Assembly (NCBI GenBank): GCA_964384995.1
Contig: CAYLMJ010000008.1
Location: forward strand, 1,158 to 65,157
Length of the DNA: 64,000 nt
Reading direction: 5' to 3'
From: an uncultured archaeon
Lineage (GTDB): Archaea; Thermoplasmatota; Poseidoniia; MGIII; CAYLMJ01
Program-made: the position numbers and the translations under genes
Part shown: positions 43,193-52,048 of the stretch, piece after piece
How the letters are laid out: each line of letters opens with the position of its first letter
Position numbering within the stretch: position 1 is the stretch's first letter
The notes under the pieces: generated by a model
What the model saw: the letters and a program-made list of their open reading frames with translations, nothing else
Told to the model about the DNA's origin: nothing
Database searches by the model: none

Positions 43193-45520
43193 TCAGGACT
43201 TGGAAATGTAGGCTCCGATCACAGCCTGACCCAGGGCGATGCCGCCGTCGTTGGGCGGTACCCGCTGATGGGTGTAGACCGCGAATCCCTCCTCATTGAG
43301 CCGTGTGACCGTCCGCTCCAGCAGGTAGCGGTTCTGAAAACAGCCTCCCGATAGCACCACGTTGTGTTCATCGATATGCTGGGCGGCGCTCACGATGCCC
43401 TCCACCAGGCCATTGTGGAAGCGGGCCGCTATCTTGGCCGGTTCGACCCCCTTGCCCAGGTCGTTCCTGACGTGTTCCACCATCCGCCACCATTCCAGCT
43501 GGAACCTGGCCTTCCGCCTGCTGGGAGAGATCGGCATGGGATAGGCCCACTGTTTGGCCGCCTCACTGGCCGGCGGCAGGATGAACTCCAGGGCCATGGC
43601 CGCCTGTCCCTCAAAGGCATTCTTCCGCTTTAGTCCCAGCAGAGCCGATACCCCATCGAATAGACGACCCGCGCTGGTGGTCACCGGGGCGTTGTAACCC
43701 TTTTCCAGCATCGCCGTGAGGGTGGCCAGTTCCGAGGCACCAAAGCCCAGGGCTTCAGTTCCCCCTTCGGCCTCGATATCCATCTCATGGAGCAGGGCCA
43801 GCGCCGATCGCCGGGGCTCCCTGGCCGCCATGTCGCCTCCCGGCAGACGGAAGGGTTGCAGGTGACCCACTCGCTCGAAACCGGTGGGGTCTCCCAGCAG
43901 GAACTCACCGCCCCACACCGTGCCATCGGGACCGTAGCCGGTGCCGTCCCAGGAGACTCCCAGCACCGGGCCGGTCAGGTCGTTCTCGGCCATGGCCGAG
44001 GCGATGTGGGCCTCGTGATGCTGGACCTTGATCAAGGTCAGGCCACGTTGGGTTGCAAGCTCCCGGGCAAAGCGGGAGCAGAGATGATCGGGATGCAGGT
44101 CGCAGGCCACCAGCCCGGGCTCGAACTCCAGCAGTTCGCTCAGGTCCTGGATGACCCGCTCGAAGGCGTTGTAGGCCTCGGTGGTGGCCAGGTCCCCGAT
44201 ATGCTGGGAGAGGAAGACCCGGCCGCCGGTGGCAAGGGCCACGCTGTTCTTCAGGTGGGCTCCCACCGCCAGGACCTCGCTGTTGGCCAGGGTGTCGGCC
44301 AAGAGGCCGGGACTGAAGGTCAGGGGCAGGGGAGCGTAACCGCGGGCCCGGCGGAGTACCAGCTCCCGTCCGTTGACGAAGCGCACGATGGAGTCATCCA
44401 CATGGCGCAGGATGGGCCTGTCGTGGACCAGGAACACATCGGCGATGCTTCCCAGCCGTTCCAGGGCCTCCCGCTCCCCGATGGCCATGGGTTCCTCCGA
44501 CAGGTTGCCCGAGGTGGCCACCACCGGGTAGCCCAGCTCGGTCATGAGCAGGTGATGCAGGGGGGTGTATGGCAGCATGACCCCCAGGTAGGGATTGCCC
44601 GGTGCCACATTGGGCGCCAGGCCCTCATGTTGGGCCCTCCTTCGCAAAAGAACGATGGGGCTCTCCGGGGCCTGGAGCGAGCGGGCCTCATCCACCGAGA
44701 CCCGGCAGGCCTCCTTCACACCCTTCATGTCAGGGAACATCAACGCCAGGGGCTTCTCCTCGCGATGCTTGCGCTCCCGCAGTCGTGCCACCGCCCTCTC
44801 ATCCCGCGCGTCCACCAGCAGTTGGTAGCCGCCAAGTCCCTTGAGGGCCACGATCCTGCCCTGGCCGATGGCGGTGGCAGCCTCCTCCAGGGCCTCCTCT
44901 CTCCGTGCCAGTACCTCACCCTGTTCATCCCATAGCTCCAACCGGGGTCCACAGGCCGGGCAGGCGTTGGGCTGGGCATGGAACCGGCGGTCCTCGGGAT
45001 TTTTATACTCATCGTCGCAAACAGGACATAACTTGAAACCAGCCATGGTGGTCATGGGCCGGTCGTATGGCAGACCCGAGATGATGGAGTAGCGGGGACC
45101 GCAGTTGGTGCAGTTGGTGAAGGGATAGCCACAGCGCCGGTTGCCCCTTTCGAGGATGTCGGAGCGGCAGTCGGCACAGGTGGCCACATCGGGCAGGACC
45201 AGCACCGTGGGCGCCCCTTCCCCCGCACTCTCTTCGATCCTGAATTCGGTGAAACCCACCGCGTCAAGCCATGAGGCCTCCAGGCTCAGGATGACGGCCA
45301 AGGGCGGCCTTTCGGCCTCCAGGCGGGACAGGAGATCCCGCAGCCGTTCGACCGGTCCTTCCACCTCGATCTGGACCCCGGAGGCGTCGTTGATGACCCA
45401 GCCGGCGAGGTCAAGCTCGGTGGCCAGACGGTAGACGAAGGGTCGAAAGCCGACACCCTGGACGGCCCCGTGGATGATGACCCTCAGCCGGTGTCCATGA
45501 CCTTCCTCGGGACCCATCAT
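43193..45520 (-). CDS. hypF: Carbamoyltransferase HypF
   Basis: Acylphosphatase domain (VQGVGFRPFVYRLA). Two CxxC-x18-CxxC zinc fingers. YrdC-like and Kae1-like domains. Confidence 0.9.
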   Translation of the reverse strand: MMGPEEGHGHRLRVIIHGAVQGVGFRPFVYRLATELDLAGWVINDASGVQIEVEGPVERLRDLLSRLEAERPPLAVILSLEASWLDAVGFTEFRIEESAGEGAPTVLVLPDVATCADCRSDILERGNRRCGYPFTNCTNCGPRYSIISGLPYDRPMTTMAGFKLCPVCDDEYKNPEDRRFHAQPNACPACGPRLELWDEQGEVLARREEALEEAATAIGQGRIVALKGLGGYQLLVDARDERAVARLRERKHREEKPLALMFPDMKGVKEACRVSVDEARSLQAPESPIVLLRRRAQHEGLAPNVAPGNPYLGVMLPYTPLHHLLMTELGYPVVATSGNLSEEPMAIGEREALERLGSIADVFLVHDRPILRHVDDSIVRFVNGRELVLRRARGYAPLPLTFSPGLLADTLANSEVLAVGAHLKNSVALATGGRVFLSQHIGDLATTEAYNAFERVIQDLSELLEFEPGLVACDLHPDHLCSRFARELATQRGLTLIKVQHHEAHIASAMAENDLTGPVLGVSWDGTGYGPDGTVWGGEFLLGDPTGFERVGHLQPFRLPGGDMAAREPRRSALALLHEMDIEAEGGTEALGFGASELATLTAMLEKGYNAPVTTSAGRLFDGVSALLGLKRKNAFEGQAAMALEFILPPASEAAKQWAYPMPISPSRRKARFQLEWWRMVEHVRNDLGKGVEPAKIAARFHNGLVEGIVSAAQHIDEHNVVLSGGCFQNRYLLERTVTRLNEEGFAVYTHQRVPPNDGGIALGQAVIGAYISKS

Positions 45521-45628
45521 GCCTCCTCTTGGTAACTTCTGCCGCCTCCCCCTCGGAGCCCGGTGACCTTGGCGCCTCGATCGCGTACAATGGATGTGAC
45601 AGCGACCAGAAGCACCGACGGGGACATC

Positions 45629-46009
45629 CTACTTTTCCAGCTCCAGCTCCATGTCCCGTACAATGACCCCTGAGCCGCCGATGACCTCGGGCACCTCGCC
45701 GCATTTGGGGCACTCCAGTGGAGGCAGGTTGTGATGGTCCTCCTCGGCGCCGGGCGGCAGCTCCACCGGACCCTTGTAGTCACAGGCCGAACAGCCCACG
45801 GTGGCCGGGACCCGGACTATCTCCAGCTCGCAGCCCTCCAAGGGCGAGTCGGGGGCGATCATCTCGAACGAGTGGCGCAGGGGCTCGTTGCCCACGAACG
45901 ACAGCTCCCCCACCTCCAGCTTGAGCCTGATGACCCGCAAAGCCTTGTGCTTCTTGGCCAGGGCCAGGGCCGAGTCAAAGACACTCTGGGCCATGGAATA
46001 CTCGTGCAT
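45629..46009 (-). CDS. hypA: Hydrogenase nickel-insertion protein HypA
   Basis: Start at MHEYSMAQSV. Zinc site CSAC...CPKC. TATA-like CTTTAAAG about 35 nt upstream. Confidence 0.85.
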   Translation of the reverse strand: MHEYSMAQSVFDSALALAKKHKALRVIRLKLEVGELSFVGNEPLRHSFEMIAPDSPLEGCELEIVRVPATVGCSACDYKGPVELPPGAEEDHHNLPPLECPKCGEVPEVIGGSGVIVRDMELELEK

Positions 46010-46122
46010 GTGTATCACGCAGGCCAGCGGCCCGGGAGGCTTTAAAGGGAGGTGGGCGCAGTTGTTTCCATCAGGGTCTTGCCTGGGACCTGGACCGCGT
46101 CCCACCCCAAAGCTTATTACGG

Positions 46123-46142
46123 ATTTCCCACTTGTGGGAAAT
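46123..46142. promoter_or_regulatory. Perfect palindrome ATTTCCCAC-TT-GTGGGAAAT in the hypA / RadB-like divergent intergenic region
   Basis: 9-bp arms read directly. Confidence 0.45.
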
Positions 46143-46286
46143 TCCGTGAAACCCGACAGTGAGACAACACCAGCCAGTATAGCCCGACAGCCGCCCCGCC
46201 GCAGTGGCAATGCGGGCCCCACCCTCGGCCCTGGGGCTGAGACGGCCTCCGACAACGATCCCGGAGAGGCTCCTTCGGAGACCGTC

Positions 46287-47114
46287 ATGAAGCGAGGGCG
46301 GTTGATGCCAGTGGCCCTGCCGGCGGCGGCCCTCTACCAGTGGCTGGCCCAGGGCGTCATGGAGCTGGACTGTCACGGAGTGATGGTGGACGGCGCCAGC
46401 ACCGCCAACCCCTACGCCCTGGTGGCGGCGGCCAAGGCCCTGGACCTTCCGGTGGACGAGGTGACCCGGCGGGTCCATGTGGTTCGGGGCTTCACCGCCC
46501 ACCAGCTGGAGCGGCTCTGCACCCATGACCTGCCCGAGCTGGCCCTGGAACTGGGAGCCCAGGGGCGGCGACTGGGCCTGGTCTGGCTCTCGGGGCTGAG
46601 CCTCTTCGAGGGCGATGACCAGCTCCAGCCCTTTGAGGGCGAGGCTCTGCGCGGCCGCTCCCTGAAGGCCATGGCCCGGCTGGTGAATCGGAACTGGGCC
46701 TTCGGCATCCTGACGGCCGCCGCCGGCCGCGGCTACGGCCACACCGGTCCGGGAGGGCCCGGGACCAGGTATCGGATAGAGTTCACACAGGAGGAGTGCA
46801 GAGTGGGACGTAGCTTACCCTCGTATCGCAATCAGCTTGAACACACCCTGGGCCGCTGGCAGGCCTACCGCCGGGCCCTCTCGCCCCGCGAGCGACCCTT
46901 CTTCGACCGGGTGACGGCCATGGCCCGGGCCCATGCCGCCCAGGGCGCTTACCTGGGCTCCGTGGACCCCATCGAGCCGGTGCTGCTGGCGGTCCTGGTG
47001 GAGCAGGAGAAGCGGCTGGAGGCCCTGGAGGGCCGACGGACCTTGGAGGCCCATTCGGCCCCGCGCACCGACGAGGAAACCCCGACCAGGGTGACTCCGG
47101 GCGACCGGGGATGA
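46287..47114 (+). CDS. RadA/RadB (RecA-superfamily)-like protein lacking Walker A and B, with helical C-terminal extension
   Basis: Pattern match to RadB. VMVDGASTANPYALVAAAKALDLPVDEVTRRVHVVRGFTAHQ resembles V.VDTEG.F.PERL...A...GL...E.L..I.V.RA....Q. GLVWLSGLSLF sits at the Walker B position. No GxxxxGK[ST] is present. Start at 46287 or 46305. Confidence 0.55.
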   Translation: MKRGRLMPVALPAAALYQWLAQGVMELDCHGVMVDGASTANPYALVAAAKALDLPVDEVTRRVHVVRGFTAHQLERLCTHDLPELALELGAQGRRLGLVWLSGLSLFEGDDQLQPFEGEALRGRSLKAMARLVNRNWAFGILTAAAGRGYGHTGPGGPGTRYRIEFTQEECRVGRSLPSYRNQLEHTLGRWQAYRRALSPRERPFFDRVTAMARAHAAQGAYLGSVDPIEPVLLAVLVEQEKRLEALEGRRTLEAHSAPRTDEETPTRVTPGDRG

Positions 47115-47180
47115 GGGGCGGGGGGCGAGGCCATCGAGGGCTGGCTGCTGGACGTCCACGCTCTGCCCCGCCGGGAGAAG

Positions 47181-49415
47181 ATGGCCCTGTGGCTCTGGCG
47201 CGGTCCCGGCGATGTTGTGCGACTTCTGGAGGACCATGACAACACCTTCTACGTCCAGGCCCTGGAGGGAGATCACCGGGAGCTGGAGCGGCTCTGCACC
47301 GAGGCCGGGGCGCCTTGCGAGCGGGTGGGTGTCAAGCTGGAGCTGGGCCGTGAGAGGGAGACCGAGGTCCTGAAGGTCCACCTGGGCCTGCGGGACGAGC
47401 GCAGCTTCGTGCGGGCCCTGAACCAGCGGGGAGGGTTCGGTCGCTACCGTTTCTTCGGTCTGGACCCCGATCTGGAACAGCGCTTCCTCCAGTCCCTGGG
47501 ACTCTATCCCCTGGCCCGGGTCAGTTGCTACCGCCACCGCTACGAGACCCTGGGCAGCCGACGGGGAATGGTGCGGCCCCCGCCCCTGCAGGTGGCCGAG
47601 CTGACCGTGGAGCCACGCATGATGACCAGCGCGCCCCACCTGCTGGACCCCCTGGGCCGGCTGGAGCTGGTCCGCCTGCCCTCTCCCGGCCTTGCCGGCG
47701 ACGGGACCAGCAGTTCGGCCCCTCGGACCGGGAGCAGGGCCGACCGCTGGGAATGGCTGGCCCCTGAAGGGGAACATGGGGGGCGCGGCCCCACCACACC
47801 CGCCGAGAGCGAGGCCCTGGAGCAACTGCAGGAGGTCCTGGACGAATGGGAGGTGGACGTGGTGGTGACATGCGGTGGTGACCAGTTCGACCTGGGCTAC
47901 CTCTGGGCCCGGGCCGACCTGGCCGGCCTGAGGTCCTTTCGCCTGGGCCGTCAGTGGCAGCCTCCCCGGCCCCGGCGCGGCGCCAGCTCCTACACCACCT
48001 ACGGCGAGGTGCGCTACCAGGCCCCGGCCTGGCACCTTCACGGCCGGCTTCACATCGACGTGCGCAACTCCTTCTTCTTCCAGGAGGGAGGCGTCTCGGG
48101 GCTCATCCACCTGGCCCGGCTCTCGGGAGTGCCCCTTCAGACCCTGGCCCGCTCCATGCCCGGCACCGCCATCTCCACCATCCAGATCCACGAGGCGGCG
48201 CGGCGGGGCTATCCCGTGCTCTGGAAGAAGAACCATCCCGAGCAGCCCAAGACCATGGCCGACCTGGCCTGCGCCGACCGCGGCGGCTACATCTGCGACC
48301 CGCAGGTGGGGGTCCATGGCAACGTGGCCGAGGTGGATTTCATCTCCCTCTACCCCTCCATCATGGTCCAGTACAACATCTCCCCCGAGACCCTGGACTG
48401 CCCCTGCTGTCCCGATTCGAGGCTGGCCATCCCCGGACTGCCCTATCGCTATTGCGAGCGCCAGGAGGGCATCGTCCCGGCCTCGCTGCGCCCCCTGCTG
48501 GCCACCCGCCGGGTGTGCAAGGCCCTGAGCAAGTCTCCCGACGACCACTATAAAAAGGTGGCCGATGTCCTGAAGTGGTTGTTGGTGTGCAGTTTCGGCT
48601 ACCAGGGCTACCGCAACGCCCGCTATGGCCGCATCGAGTGCCACGAGGCCATCCAGGCCGCGGCCCGGGAGACCATGGTGATCTCCATCGAGCTGGCCGA
48701 GGAGGCCGGCTACCGGGTGCTCCACGGCATCGTGGACTCCCTCTGGCTCCAGGGTCCGAAGAGGGACCTGCCGGCCCTGGTGGGCCGCATCAGCAAGGCC
48801 ACGGAACTGCCCCTGGCCCTGGAGGCCCTCTACCACTGGATCGCCTTCCTGCCCAACCGCTCCACCGGCCAGGGCTCCCTGACCCACTACTACGGCCTGA
48901 AGGTGACGGGCCAGGTGAAGTACCGGGGCATCGAGCTGCGCCAGCACGACACCCCCGCCTACCATCAGCGGGCCCAGAAGGCCATGCTGGCGGCTCTGGC
49001 CCGGGCCGACACCGTCGATGGCTTCCACCGCCAGATACCCGAGGCGGTGGCCGTGTTGCGCGACCATGCCGGCCCCCTGCGCCGCGGGGAGGTGGAACCG
49101 GGGGAACTGCTGATGCGCCGCCGCCTGACCCGCTCCCTGGAGGCCTACCACAACTTCAGCGACAACAGCGCGGCCATGGAGCAGCTGCTGGAGGCGGGCG
49201 TGGAGGCCCGACCGGGCCAGAGGGTGCGCTACCTGGTGGCCAACACCCGCGGCCGCACCCACCTGGAACGGGTCCGCATCGAACAGCTCATGCGGGGTGA
49301 CGAGACCTACGATAGGGCTTATTATTACAAGACCCTCCTGCGCTGTGGCGAGTCGCTGTTGTTGCCCTTCGGCTGGGACGTCGAGCGGCTGGACGCGGCG
49401 GTCCGCAGTCAGTAA
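47181..49415 (+). CDS. polB: Family-B DNA polymerase, PolB2-like with degenerate Exo I, Exo III and motif C (annotated from the first ATG; homology begins upstream at about 47127)
   Basis: Motif A DFISLYPSIMVQYNISPETL. Motif B KWLLVCSFGYQGYRNARYG. Motif C position reads VLHGIVDSLWL where Y.DTD is expected. Exo I position reads LTVEP where DIE is expected. Exo II GGDQFDLGYL is retained. Confidence 0.8.
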   Translation: MALWLWRGPGDVVRLLEDHDNTFYVQALEGDHRELERLCTEAGAPCERVGVKLELGRERETEVLKVHLGLRDERSFVRALNQRGGFGRYRFFGLDPDLEQRFLQSLGLYPLARVSCYRHRYETLGSRRGMVRPPPLQVAELTVEPRMMTSAPHLLDPLGRLELVRLPSPGLAGDGTSSSAPRTGSRADRWEWLAPEGEHGGRGPTTPAESEALEQLQEVLDEWEVDVVVTCGGDQFDLGYLWARADLAGLRSFRLGRQWQPPRPRRGASSYTTYGEVRYQAPAWHLHGRLHIDVRNSFFFQEGGVSGLIHLARLSGVPLQTLARSMPGTAISTIQIHEAARRGYPVLWKKNHPEQPKTMADLACADRGGYICDPQVGVHGNVAEVDFISLYPSIMVQYNISPETLDCPCCPDSRLAIPGLPYRYCERQEGIVPASLRPLLATRRVCKALSKSPDDHYKKVADVLKWLLVCSFGYQGYRNARYGRIECHEAIQAAARETMVISIELAEEAGYRVLHGIVDSLWLQGPKRDLPALVGRISKATELPLALEALYHWIAFLPNRSTGQGSLTHYYGLKVTGQVKYRGIELRQHDTPAYHQRAQKAMLAALARADTVDGFHRQIPEAVAVLRDHAGPLRRGEVEPGELLMRRRLTRSLEAYHNFSDNSAAMEQLLEAGVEARPGQRVRYLVANTRGRTHLERVRIEQLMRGDETYDRAYYYKTLLRCGESLLLPFGWDVERLDAAVRSQ

Positions 49416-49430
49416 CTAACCGGCGTTGCC

Positions 49431-49820
49431 ATGTACGACAACGAGGTCCTGGGTACCGGATTCATCGATCGCATCTACCGCATCGTGGTGCCCCGCAAGG
49501 CCCGGGACCTGGTGAAGCTGGAGGCTGGCCGCAACAGCGCCGTCTGGTTCGTGGACGAGTTCGACCTCTGTGTGAAGTTCCTGGAAGGAGCGGAGGAGGT
49601 GGAGCTGGCCCGGGACCGGTACGAGGTTCTGGACACCTCCACCATGGATGGCAAGTTCCGTCTGGTCGTGCCCAAGAGGATCCGCAGCCAGGTGGGGCTC
49701 TCCACCGAGGACCAGGTGGTGTGGTACACCGACGGCTTCAACCTCTGTGTCAAGTTCCTGTCGGCCAGGGACATGCACCGCCTGCTGGTGGCCATGGACC
49801 GGGAGCGGGAGCGCCATTGA
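49431..49820 (+). CDS. Tandem SpoVT/AbrB-domain (MraZ-like) protein
   Basis: Internal duplication: IDRIYRIVVPRKARDLVKL..AVWFVDEFDLCVKFL versus MDGKFRLVVPKRIRSQVGL..VVWYTDGFNLCVKFL. Confidence 0.65.
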   Translation: MYDNEVLGTGFIDRIYRIVVPRKARDLVKLEAGRNSAVWFVDEFDLCVKFLEGAEEVELARDRYEVLDTSTMDGKFRLVVPKRIRSQVGLSTEDQVVWYTDGFNLCVKFLSARDMHRLLVAMDRERERH

Positions 49821-49894
49821 CGGCGAGTTGGACCCCATCTCCTGGAGTTGAAAAGAAAGGGTGATTAACCAGATGTTGTTGGGGGGCCGAACCC

Positions 49895-52048
49895 ATGTCC
49901 GAAGAGACCCGTGAGGTATTCTGGAACATCCCGGATATCGGCCGTCCCATCATCTACCTCTTGAGTTTGGTGGCGATGGCCCTCTTTGCCTGGGGGATGC
50001 ATCACCGGTTCGTACGGTACTGGATGCGGGGCAAGGGGGCGCCCGAGGGACTGAGAGCTCAGGTGGGCCTTCTGTTGAGCGAGCTCAGGCGGGAGCCCCG
50101 GCGGCGGTTGAGCCGGTTGCGCAGGTTCGCCCTCTGCCAGTCTTGGTCGGGCCGCAGGCTCCTGGGCCGCATCATGCACCTGATGATCTTCTGGGGCTTT
50201 GTGGCCCTGTTCATCGGCACCCTCATCATCACCATCCAGGAGGACCTCACCCTCCCGCTCTTCGACTACGAGTTCTGGAAGGGCACCTTCTACCTGGTCT
50301 ACGCCGTCATACTGGACCTGCTGGGTCTCTTCTTCATGCTGGGCCTGCTCATCGCCCTGTGGCGGCGCTACGTTGCCAGGGCCCCCGAGCTGGAGCGGGG
50401 CATCGACGATCTGGTGGCCATGGGCCTGCTCTTCGTCATCGGCCTGACCGGCTACCTGGTGGAGGGTCTGCGCATCGCCGCCCGGGACCCGGTGAACTCG
50501 GATGTGGGGGCCTGGGAGTTCGCCGGCCAGGGCTTTGCCGCCCTCTGCACGGCCCTGGGGATGTCCGAGGGGGCGGCCGAGCTGCCCCATGCCATCCTGT
50601 GGTGGTCCCACTTCCTCCTGGCCATGGCCTTCATCGTCTACCTGCCCCACAGCAAGCTGATGCACATCATCACCGGGCCGGCCAGCATCCTCTTTGCCGA
50701 TCTCAAGCCTCGGGGACAGCTCACCAAACCCAGCGACCTGATGGCCCTGATGGAGCAGGACGACTTCGAGGAGGAGGACCTGATGATCGGAGCCGGGAAG
50801 CTGGAGGACCTCACCTGGCAGGAGCATCTGAGCTTCGACGCCTGCACCATGTGCGGCCGCTGTCAGGCGGCCTGCCCCGCGTATGCCAGCGACAAGCCCC
50901 TGAACCCCAAACGGCTGGTCCTGGACCTGAGAGGACTGCAGGAGACCAGCTACGGCAGGCTCTGGCGTTCACCGCCCGCCCCCGAACCCGTGGACCTCCA
51001 TGGCGCAACCATCGCCGCCGACACCCTGTGGGCCTGCACCACCTGCATGGGCTGTGTCGAGGCCTGCCCGGTGCTCATCCCCCACGTGGACCTCATCGTC
51101 GCCATGCGGCGCCACCTGACCATGACCGGCGATATCGTCGGCGAGCTCCAGGGGGTCTACCGCAACCTGGAGAACAACGGCAATCCCTGGGGCCTCGGCT
51201 GGGCCGAGCGGGCCGACTGGACCGAGGAGCTGGAGACCCCGGTGAAGCTGGCCTCGGAGGGCGATTTCGACTACTTGCTCTGGGTGGGATGTGCCGGGTC
51301 GTTCGATGCCCGGGCCCGCAAGGTGACGGTGGCCCTGGTGAAACTGCTCCAGGCCGCCAGGGTGGACTTCGCCATCCTGGGCACCGAGGAGAAGTGCAAC
51401 GGCGAGTTCGCCCGCCGCATGGGCAACGAACTGCTGTTCCAGATGCTGGTCACCGAGAACGTGGCCAACCTCAACGGCCATGGCGTGAAGAGGATCATCA
51501 CCGCCTGCCCCCACTGCTTCAACACCCTGAGCCACGATTACCCCCAGTTCGGCGGACATTACGAGGTGGTCCACCATTCCCGGTTCCTTCAAGACCTCAT
51601 CGATGTGGGAAAGCTCAAGGTGGACCCGGAAGCCGCTCGAGTCACCGGAACCGACGGACCCCTAACCTTCCACGACCCCTGCTACCTGGGCCGCTACAAT
51701 GGGGAGTACGAGGCCCCCCGTCGGGTCCTGAAAAGGGCTGGGATCGATATGGTGGAGATGGAACGCTCACGGACCGATTCCTTTTGCTGTGGCGCGGGGG
51801 GCGGCCGCATGTGGCTGGAGGAGGAGGCCCACCAGCGGGTCAACACCCTGCGGGTCAGGGAGGCTCTGGCCACAGGAGCCGGCACCATCGGCGTGGGCTG
51901 TCCGTTCTGCCTCACCATGCTGGAGGATGGCGTGAAGGAACAGGAACAGGGACAGGAGCAAGAGCGGGAGCTGGGGCGGGAAGGGGCCCCGGAGGGTGCA
52001 GTTAAGGTTTTAGACCTGGCCGAGCTTCTGGCCTTCAATATCCAATGA
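49895..52048 (+). CDS. Membrane-anchored Fe-S oxidoreductase (NarI/DsrM-like TM domain fused to 2x[4Fe-4S] and CCG domains; COG0247/DsrK/HdrD-like)
   Basis: About 5 N-terminal TM helices with conserved His (WWSHFLLAMAFIVYLPHSKLMH). Motifs: CTMCGRCQAACP, CTTCMGCVEACP, DPCYLGRYN, and CCGAGGG. Confidence 0.8.
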   Translation: MSEETREVFWNIPDIGRPIIYLLSLVAMALFAWGMHHRFVRYWMRGKGAPEGLRAQVGLLLSELRREPRRRLSRLRRFALCQSWSGRRLLGRIMHLMIFWGFVALFIGTLIITIQEDLTLPLFDYEFWKGTFYLVYAVILDLLGLFFMLGLLIALWRRYVARAPELERGIDDLVAMGLLFVIGLTGYLVEGLRIAARDPVNSDVGAWEFAGQGFAALCTALGMSEGAAELPHAILWWSHFLLAMAFIVYLPHSKLMHIITGPASILFADLKPRGQLTKPSDLMALMEQDDFEEEDLMIGAGKLEDLTWQEHLSFDACTMCGRCQAACPAYASDKPLNPKRLVLDLRGLQETSYGRLWRSPPAPEPVDLHGATIAADTLWACTTCMGCVEACPVLIPHVDLIVAMRRHLTMTGDIVGELQGVYRNLENNGNPWGLGWAERADWTEELETPVKLASEGDFDYLLWVGCAGSFDARARKVTVALVKLLQAARVDFAILGTEEKCNGEFARRMGNELLFQMLVTENVANLNGHGVKRIITACPHCFNTLSHDYPQFGGHYEVVHHSRFLQDLIDVGKLKVDPEAARVTGTDGPLTFHDPCYLGRYNGEYEAPRRVLKRAGIDMVEMERSRTDSFCCGAGGGRMWLEEEAHQRVNTLRVREALATGAGTIGVGCPFCLTMLEDGVKEQEQGQEQERELGREGAPEGAVKVLDLAELLAFNIQ

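Follow-up and report, generated by a model that had tools for sequence, protein, structure and literature searches.

We focus here on the start of a PolB2-type family B DNA polymerase gene on the forward strand of a 64,000-nucleotide (nt) stretch of contig CAYLMJ010000008.1 (assembly GCA_964384995.1) from an uncultured Thermoplasmatota archaeon, the whole of this stretch being referred to below as the window. The gene, recognized by Pfam and NCBIfam matches and an AlphaFold2 model, occupies positions 47133–49415 and encodes 760 residues if it is read from the ATC codon at 47133–47135, the codon that aligns with the initiator methionine (Met1) of its homologues and that is kept in the sister species. 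Our best reading, to which we give a probability of roughly 60% on the strength of sequence comparison, is that PolB2 of this genus would initiate at this near-cognate AUC and would be made, at a low level, as the full-length 760-residue protein. The upstream open reading frame (ORF) ends at a TGA (47112–47114) that lies in the frame of the polymerase ORF in the window, a frame relation that is not conserved, and the 22 codons that follow (47115–47180, GAGGEAIEGWLLDVHALPRREK) include no ATG, GTG or TTG, the earliest canonical start in the polymerase frame being the ATG at 47181–47183. This ATG, the pick of all gene callers, encodes residue 17 as counted from the ATC (Met17), which corresponds to an internal methionine common to most homologues; codons 2–16 (47136–47180), comprising the first β-strand (EGWLLDVH) and the adjoining loop of the PolB N-terminal domain, are absent from current gene calls. 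Within the start-free stretch, a Shine-Dalgarno-like element, GGGGGGCGAGG (47120–47130), is identical in the sister species, with its run of six G residues (G6) ending 7 nt before the ATC, and the distance from the upstream stop to the ATC is 18 nt in the window and 20 nt in the sister species. Another ATG (47111–47113) overlaps the TGA as ATGA; it is the sole start in its frame, which lies one base behind that of the polymerase, and entry into PolB2 from it requires a +1 shift, for example on GGGGCGGGGGGC (47115–47126). A sequence-only reading of the window had described this layout, and we confirm both the same-frame ORFs split by a TGA, with 22 start-free codons before the first ATG, and the adjacent-frame ATG in the ATGA overlap.

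First of all, the alignment of homologues, the family profile and the modelled first strand together support a true N-terminus of the polymerase upstream of the ATG at 47181. The protein matches PF00136 at 2e-17 and NF004416 at 1e-117, and a database search returned 470 homologues, mostly from Thermoplasmatota with some from anaerobic methanotrophic archaea (ANME)/Methanoperedens, with a typical length of 715–755 residues; the annotated form beginning at 47181, which is carried by many contigs, has 744. The N-termini of the homologues are uniform (M-R/K/E-G-W-[ILV]-[LFI]-D-x-Y-P-D...M-V-x-W), 42 of them, 36–55% identical to the window protein, starting M-x-G-W-[ILV]-[LFI]-D. In an alignment of 44 sequences, the window's I-E-G-W-L-L-D-V-H fits this pattern without gaps, the Ile (ATC) codon falling in the Met1 column, and Asp7 and Trp20 are invariant. 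Furthermore, in the alignment made with the family profile, GWLLDV falls on the strand that comes first in Pyrococcus abyssi PolB, and the AlphaFold2 model, with a mean predicted local distance difference test score (pLDDT) of 89.7, places residues 2–11 in a strand at pLDDT ~95, followed by a second strand at residues 16–24; compared with full-length archaeal PolB structures (9N, KOD, Tgo), the model gives template-modelling (TM) scores of 0.73–0.74. The proposal of the sequence-only reading that the WLLDV segment is the conserved first strand of a PolB is thus well founded. As for its wider interpretation, the placing of the N-terminus upstream of the first ATG stands, and the four mechanisms that it had offered for this (a homopolymer indel in the assembly, programmed frameshifting, read-through of the TGA and a decaying gene) give way before the comparison of orthologues and the ratio of nonsynonymous to synonymous divergence (dN/dS).

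Second, the same start-free arrangement is found in the sister species (G001, locus L002/L035), the sole other genome of this genus in a set of 199,900 species, whose PolB2 is identical to that of the window at 83% of protein and 81% of DNA positions. Its junction reads TAG-GGG-GGC-GAG-GCT-ATC-GAG-GGC-TGG, which keeps both the G6 run and the ATC of the window, and the junction is identical in L070, an independent contig of the species from JGI. The ATC is preceded at a distance of 4 codons by an in-frame TAG; the upstream gene has a separate TAG as its stop, in a different frame, and from that stop to Met17 every frame is free of ATG, GTG and TTG. In both species, a conserved N-terminus lies upstream of the called start, an in-frame stop precedes it and no canonical start comes between; the near-cognate codon stands in the Met1 column and is conserved in the orthologues (L035/L070). 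Within the population of the window itself, six further contigs from six samples agree with it base for base over 47040–47200, both G-runs and the ATC included; five of these (four from JGI, one from ENA) carry the same protein and the sixth a variant protein, and one locus (L018) is covered from 47052.

These data leave little room for an artefact or for decay, that is, for a wrong G count, an ATG misread as ATC, or a pseudogene. G-rich homopolymers are error-prone, and a polymerase without the canonical DTD motif might be suspected of having lost its function. However, the window with its six companion contigs and the two sister assemblies agree at the G-runs and at the ATC, and the unchanged G6 run of the sister species means that counting G residues in orthologues does not restore a simple ATG start, as the assembly-indel proposal would have it. 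Synonymous divergence (dS) between the window and sister PolB2 genes is 0.64 and nonsynonymous divergence (dN) 0.12, giving a dN/dS of 0.19 over 760 codons with zero internal stops, and by this measure of the two sequences the gene is under purifying selection and not decaying. In addition, the motif that replaces DTD, HGIVDS, is found family-wide in PolB2, and PolB2 is catalytically active in Sulfolobus (PMC8764526, PMC11791011). We therefore hold artefact or decay to be highly improbable.

The comparison with relatives also bears on how ribosomes might otherwise reach the polymerase frame. A programmed +1 frameshift, in which translation starts at the ATG at 47111, coupled through the ATGA overlap, and slips on the G-run into the PolB2 frame, would make use of features that do exist: the overlap is present, GGG GGG permits re-pairing of tRNA-Gly after a +1 slip, and the G6 run is kept in the sister species. 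However, no start codon occurs at the homologous position of the sister species, where the nearest starts in the frame that requires the shift lie 118 and 247 nt upstream, within the upstream gene; the N-terminal extension would be nearly without match among homologues, a start well upstream (15 codons) occurring in 1 of 33 loci of other Thermoplasmatota; and the conserved ATC would be a coincidence. The mechanism, under which a junction peptide MRGGGGEAIEGW would be expected, is in our judgement most improbable. It resembles prfB-type +1 frameshifting and archaeal recoding (PMC8211752) in having an out-of-frame ATG followed by a homopolymer that allows a frame-restoring +1 slip, and is unlike them in that the start is unconserved, a stop-codon or rare-codon pause element is lacking, and the extension is almost unmatched. 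From the ATG at 47111, a 42-codon out-of-frame ORF (47111–47239) spans the PolB2 start region and is likewise unconserved in the sister species; ribosomes reinitiating at this ATG via the ATGA overlap would pass over the ATC.

Read-through of the TGA is another way in which the two ORFs might be joined, here into a fusion of PolB2 with the upstream protein, itself most likely a fusion of the PolB2-associated proteins iRadA and PPB2. Such an iRadA::PPB2::PolB2 product would suit the window, where the ORFs share a frame and a single TGA parts them, and fusions between components are known in PolB2 operons (PMC11791011). The relatives, on the other hand, do not keep this relation. The sister genes are in different frames with their own TAG stops, and in a third lineage at 90% identity, compared by gene coordinates, the spacer measures 66 nt, which keeps the genes in frame, or 65 nt, which puts them out of frame, depending on the strain. 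Distant relatives have separate overlapping genes, with an overlap of 8 nt in L021 and the P0130 contig and a GTGA in L025/L028, the latter being a distant PolB2 with a GTGA-coupled GTG start. Moreover, the tail of the upstream gene is poorly conserved and carries a 45-nt indel. Orthologues thus have separate genes in a variable frame relation, and read-through is scarcely credible.

Third, the pattern of change between the two species in the 16 codons at issue is, by sequence, that of a protein and not of a leader. The 48 nt from the ATC to the AAG before Met17 (47133–47180) are 90% identical and free of indels, compared with 81% identity in the PolB2 body, 63% (with the 45-nt indel) in the tail of the upstream gene, 54% with many gaps in the hypA spacer and 27% in the region past the third gene of the module. 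Four-fold degenerate sites of PolB2 differ at 34%, and at that rate five or fewer changes in 48 neutral sites would be expected with P ~2e-4. The nine strand codons (I-E-G-W-L-L-D-V-H) contain one synonymous change, and the three replacements all fall in the loop that follows, which is also variable family-wide.

This pattern is most telling for the reading in which the start has been lost and the protein is made only from Met17, lacking the first β-strand, the 48 nt persisting as a conserved untranslated leader. Constraint on a leader should peak beside the ATG at 47181, and the reverse is observed, conservation being highest over the strand codons, 20–48 nt from the ATG, and at its lowest in the codons adjoining it; the leader reading is thus disfavoured. 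There is a case for it nonetheless: the ATG at 47181 is the only canonical start and is chosen by every gene caller, it is preceded at 3–4 nt by a G-rich stretch in both species, the energies predicted for the duplex being -7.1 and -6.2 kcal/mol, Val/Ile occupies this position in the two closest outgroups, so that the Met could be a compensating gain, and initiation at AUC is very weak (bioRxiv 10.1101/063800). However, the consensus of the family has a Met here, which is therefore no novelty, the invariant Asp7 is retained, and the first strand is confidently modelled within the N-terminal domain. Furthermore, the 3–4 nt spacing of the G-rich stretch falls outside the 6–9 nt peak of this genome, and the RNA over the junction is predicted to have no significant structure, its stability not going beyond that of shuffled sequences (z = +1.9, -0.4). 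Production from Met17 is the chief competitor of our reading; as the sole route we consider it to be unlikely, while granting it a real chance.

Finally, the initiation signals fit the ATC. The 3' end of the 16S rRNA is GGAUCACCUCCU, and, computed on 705 genes whose ATG starts are unambiguous in this genome, GGAGG/GAGG motifs peak 7 nt from the start within a range of 6–9; the G6 run, itself conserved, ends at this modal Shine-Dalgarno spacing of 7 nt from the ATC. In both species, the duplex predicted upstream of the ATC with the anti-Shine-Dalgarno sequence has an energy of -11.1 kcal/mol, which puts it among the top 8% of real starts, compared with the values given above for Met17 and with -4.7 kcal/mol upstream of the ATG at 47111. 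The gap of 18–20 nt between stop and ATC favours independent initiation over coupling, since termination-reinitiation coupling is almost abolished at ~20 nt in Haloferax and E. coli (PMC10666635). In this respect, this genus differs from overlap-coupled pairs, in which an overlapping stop and start is typical for subunits of one complex (PMC6728339, PMC10666635) and to which the PolB2 genes of distant relatives conform, their starts overlapping the upstream stop by 8 nt (L021) or as GTGA (L025). The tRNA complement is uninformative on the initiator tRNA, the 44 tRNAs reported by aragorn for a metagenome-assembled genome that is 90% complete including a single tRNA-Met(CAT) and a single tRNA-Ile(GAT).

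Initiation at another near-cognate, namely one of the two CTG codons at 47145 and 47148 that encode the Leu pair of WLLD, has also to be weighed. Both codons are kept in the sister species, and CUG is similar to AUC in near-cognate strength in E. coli (bioRxiv 10.1101/063800). However, neither stands in the Met1 column of the homologues, a start at either would lose the conserved Gly-Trp, the G6 run lies 19–22 nt upstream, beyond the Shine-Dalgarno spacing peak, and the two codons are already accounted for as conserved Leu. A CTG start is, on this evidence, very unlikely.

Several points weigh against initiation at the AUC. That ribosomes do initiate there is what we infer from comparison, and AUC is a very poor start wherever it has been measured; archaeal aIF1, moreover, discriminates against non-canonical starts (PMC8211752). 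The Shine-Dalgarno argument carries low weight: the median duplex energy is equal for real starts and for internal control sites in this genome, where the signal is weak and limited to a subset of genes. The ATG at 47181 has its own G-rich stretch 3–4 nt upstream in both species, and a Met17-truncated product may be made, possibly beside the long form. Coupling to the upstream gene is no rescue for a weak start across an 18–20 nt gap. The few synonymous changes in the 16 codons (2 of 12.5 sites) indicate constraint at the nucleotide level, which could also be compatible with a non-coding role. Lastly, conservation of the ATC rests on two diverged lineages with junction DNA.

The starts of PolB2 genes elsewhere give this picture its context. 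We located the codon of the consensus Met in 33 loci of other Thermoplasmatota, 30 of them from a 400-genome sample together with L021, L025 and L038. A canonical start is present at or before the consensus Met in all 33, mostly within 2 codons and in one case 15 codons upstream, and a canonical start at the consensus is missing only in the two loci of the window's genus. In at least 8 of the 33, GTG or TTG is the sole start at the consensus Met, and weak starts are thus common in the PolB2 family. One protein, P0102, looked at first like a second independent case, its database start being an internal Met (MVSW...). Its DNA (L038:913-963, L039) has a normal TTG at the consensus, however, reading TTG-GAA-GGA-TGG and lying 48 nt upstream of the called start, in overlap with the upstream gene; PolB2 starts are therefore mis-called in other lineages too. 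Scans for further relatives added little: a peptide-pattern scan of JGI metagenomes found no relative, and exact-DNA scans returned chiefly unrelated matches from GC-rich bacteria, the useful ones being the sister contig L035 and the distant PolB2 of L025/L028. As a separate observation, high-scoring PolB2 matches in six genomes (G244, G273, G377, G149, G399 and G107) have a TGA, TAA or TAG within the match, which may lie at its edge or interrupt the gene; G244, G273, G377, G149 and G107 belong to genus g75.

No other natural AUC start with good support is known to us from Archaea, and, to our knowledge, natural starts other than ATG, GTG and TTG are exceedingly uncommon among prokaryotes, with hardly any documentation in Archaea. 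In E. coli, initiation at AUC reaches 1–2% of the level of AUG and yields a product with an N-terminal Met, and the confirmed non-canonical starts are those of infC and pcnB only, both AUU (bioRxiv 10.1101/063800). Among 61,358 ancestral starts that were reconstructed as AUG, three changed to a codon that is neither GUG nor UUG, these being CUG or AUU and none AUC (PMC5622118). In Haloferax, ribosome profiling placed ~30% of putative alternative start sites at near-cognates, which were set aside in that study (PMC7261190). The case described here is like infC and pcnB in several ways. An AUN near-cognate stands at the true N-terminus, is conserved in relatives and is preceded by a Shine-Dalgarno-like element, and the expected effect would be the same, namely that a protein harmful in excess is expressed at a low level. 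There are also clear differences. The codon is AUC and not AUU, and archaeal initiation is of the aIF1/aIF2 type, so that the IF3-based autoregulation of infC cannot apply. Finally, the infC and pcnB starts are confirmed in E. coli, whereas the AUC start of PolB2 is a candidate from sequence comparison.

These considerations suggest the following course of events. The initiator codon of the genus ancestor would have mutated to ATC, and initiator Met-tRNA would pair with the near-cognate AUC, so that translation would still begin at 47133, probably assisted by the G-rich Shine-Dalgarno-like element 7 nt upstream. The product would be the 760-residue protein that retains the first β-strand, and the weak start would keep expression of a mutagenic polymerase low. 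Because gene callers disallow ATC, the annotation starts at Met17 and is 16 residues short. The predicted N-terminal peptide is (M)EGWLLDVHALPR if translation starts at the AUC, versus MALWLWR if it starts at Met17. Throttling of expression is, we infer, a plausible function of the weak start, and it is only tentatively, at somewhat less than even odds, that we suggest that a fixed AUC start has been kept since the two species split (dS ~0.6) as a hard-wired throttle on mutagenic PolB2.

The polymerase itself and the genes around it correspond to a known module. Motif A is intact (DFISLYPS, residue 402), and in motif C, HGIVDS at residues 531–536, the first Asp of the DxD (YGDTDS) is replaced; HGIVDS is found in all 44 aligned homologues, with H531, G532 and D535 invariant. 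Substitution of the first Asp of DxD is used as the criterion for PolB2 (PMC11791011), and the window protein combines it with a family B fold, an intact motif A and an iRadA/PPB2 operon. PolB2 was once deemed inactive and is a damage-induced polymerase with translesion and mismatch-extending activity in Sulfolobus (PMC2527604, PMC8764526, PMC7390963), to which a damage-induced mutagenic role has been assigned (PMC11791011, PMC8764526, PMC7390963). By analogy with the activity known for Sulfolobus Dpo2 (PMC8764526, PMC7390963), the PolB2 of the window may be a translesion polymerase.

In its operons, PolB2 is accompanied by iRadA and PPB2; iRadA-PPB2-PolB2 is a frequent gene order, and components are in some cases fused (PMC11791011). 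The gene upstream of PolB2 (46305–47114, forward strand, with an alternative ATG at 46287) encodes 269 residues and is probably an iRadA::PPB2 fusion. Gene calls on identical contigs assign its product to PF26485 (DUF8156). Sequence-only searches of Pfam, NCBIfam and the PDB gave nothing, and RadA was identified by fold search only: the AlphaFold2 model has a pLDDT of 85, and its top Foldseek matches are RadA ATPase cores with E ~1e-7, which agrees with the earlier suggestion from the sequence that this protein is RadB-like, in the sense of a RadA/RadB-like fold. A motif check of the 269-residue sequence found no Walker A motif. The protein thus appears to consist of a P-loop-less RadA core (residues ~1–165) and a C-terminal helical part (167–245). 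The latter matches hundreds of stand-alone proteins of 80–120 residues from their first residue, and small proteins of that kind, labelled DUF8156, adjoin PolB2 in other contigs; in the L038 and L039 contigs, the RadA-like and helical parts are separate genes. We take DUF8156 to correspond to PPB2 (arCOG07300), and the upstream gene is most likely a fusion of the two.

The third gene of the module (49431–49820, forward strand) encodes an AbrB/MraZ-like protein of 129 residues (TIGR01439 AbrB at 4e-7, with weak MazE/MraZ matches); it comes after PolB2 in every contig of the genus and of a lineage at 53% identity, and its product may be the operon regulator. The module is thus the known iRadA-PPB2-PolB2 operon extended by an AbrB-like gene, here in an uncultured Thermoplasmatota archaeon. 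As in the Dpo2 mutasome operon of Sulfolobus islandicus (PMC11791011, PMC8764526), a polymerase with HGIVDS directly follows P-loop-less RadA-like and PPB2-like parts. Unlike the published trio, iRadA and PPB2 are apparently one 269-residue protein and an AbrB/MraZ-like gene follows PolB2; unlike published PolB2 operons, a canonical PolB2 start codon is absent, and this in the present genus only.

The surroundings of the module vary. The GC content over 44001–52000 is 0.66–0.68, compared with ~0.62 elsewhere in the window. Among close strains, the flanks differ, with hypF-hypA upstream in the window and some contigs and aminotransferase/HIT genes in others, and in the 53% lineage the module is flanked by SRAP, integrase and BrxB genes; the module may be mobile between sites. 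A Fer4/CCG membrane protein gene after the module (49810–51859) is missing from the syntenic site in the sister species, and the two sequences become similar again at ~51859.

What we describe adds an instance to a known but rare phenomenon and puts right a systematic error of annotation. This error has spread, every public copy of the protein being 16 residues short and lacking the invariant Asp and the first strand. The locus is a clean candidate, supported by comparison, for a rare non-canonical start in Archaea. If our reading is true, archaeal initiation tolerates AUC to a degree that lets a functional gene rely on it. The strength of a start codon would then be tied to the control of a mutagenic polymerase, adding a translational layer on top of the known transcriptional induction by damage.

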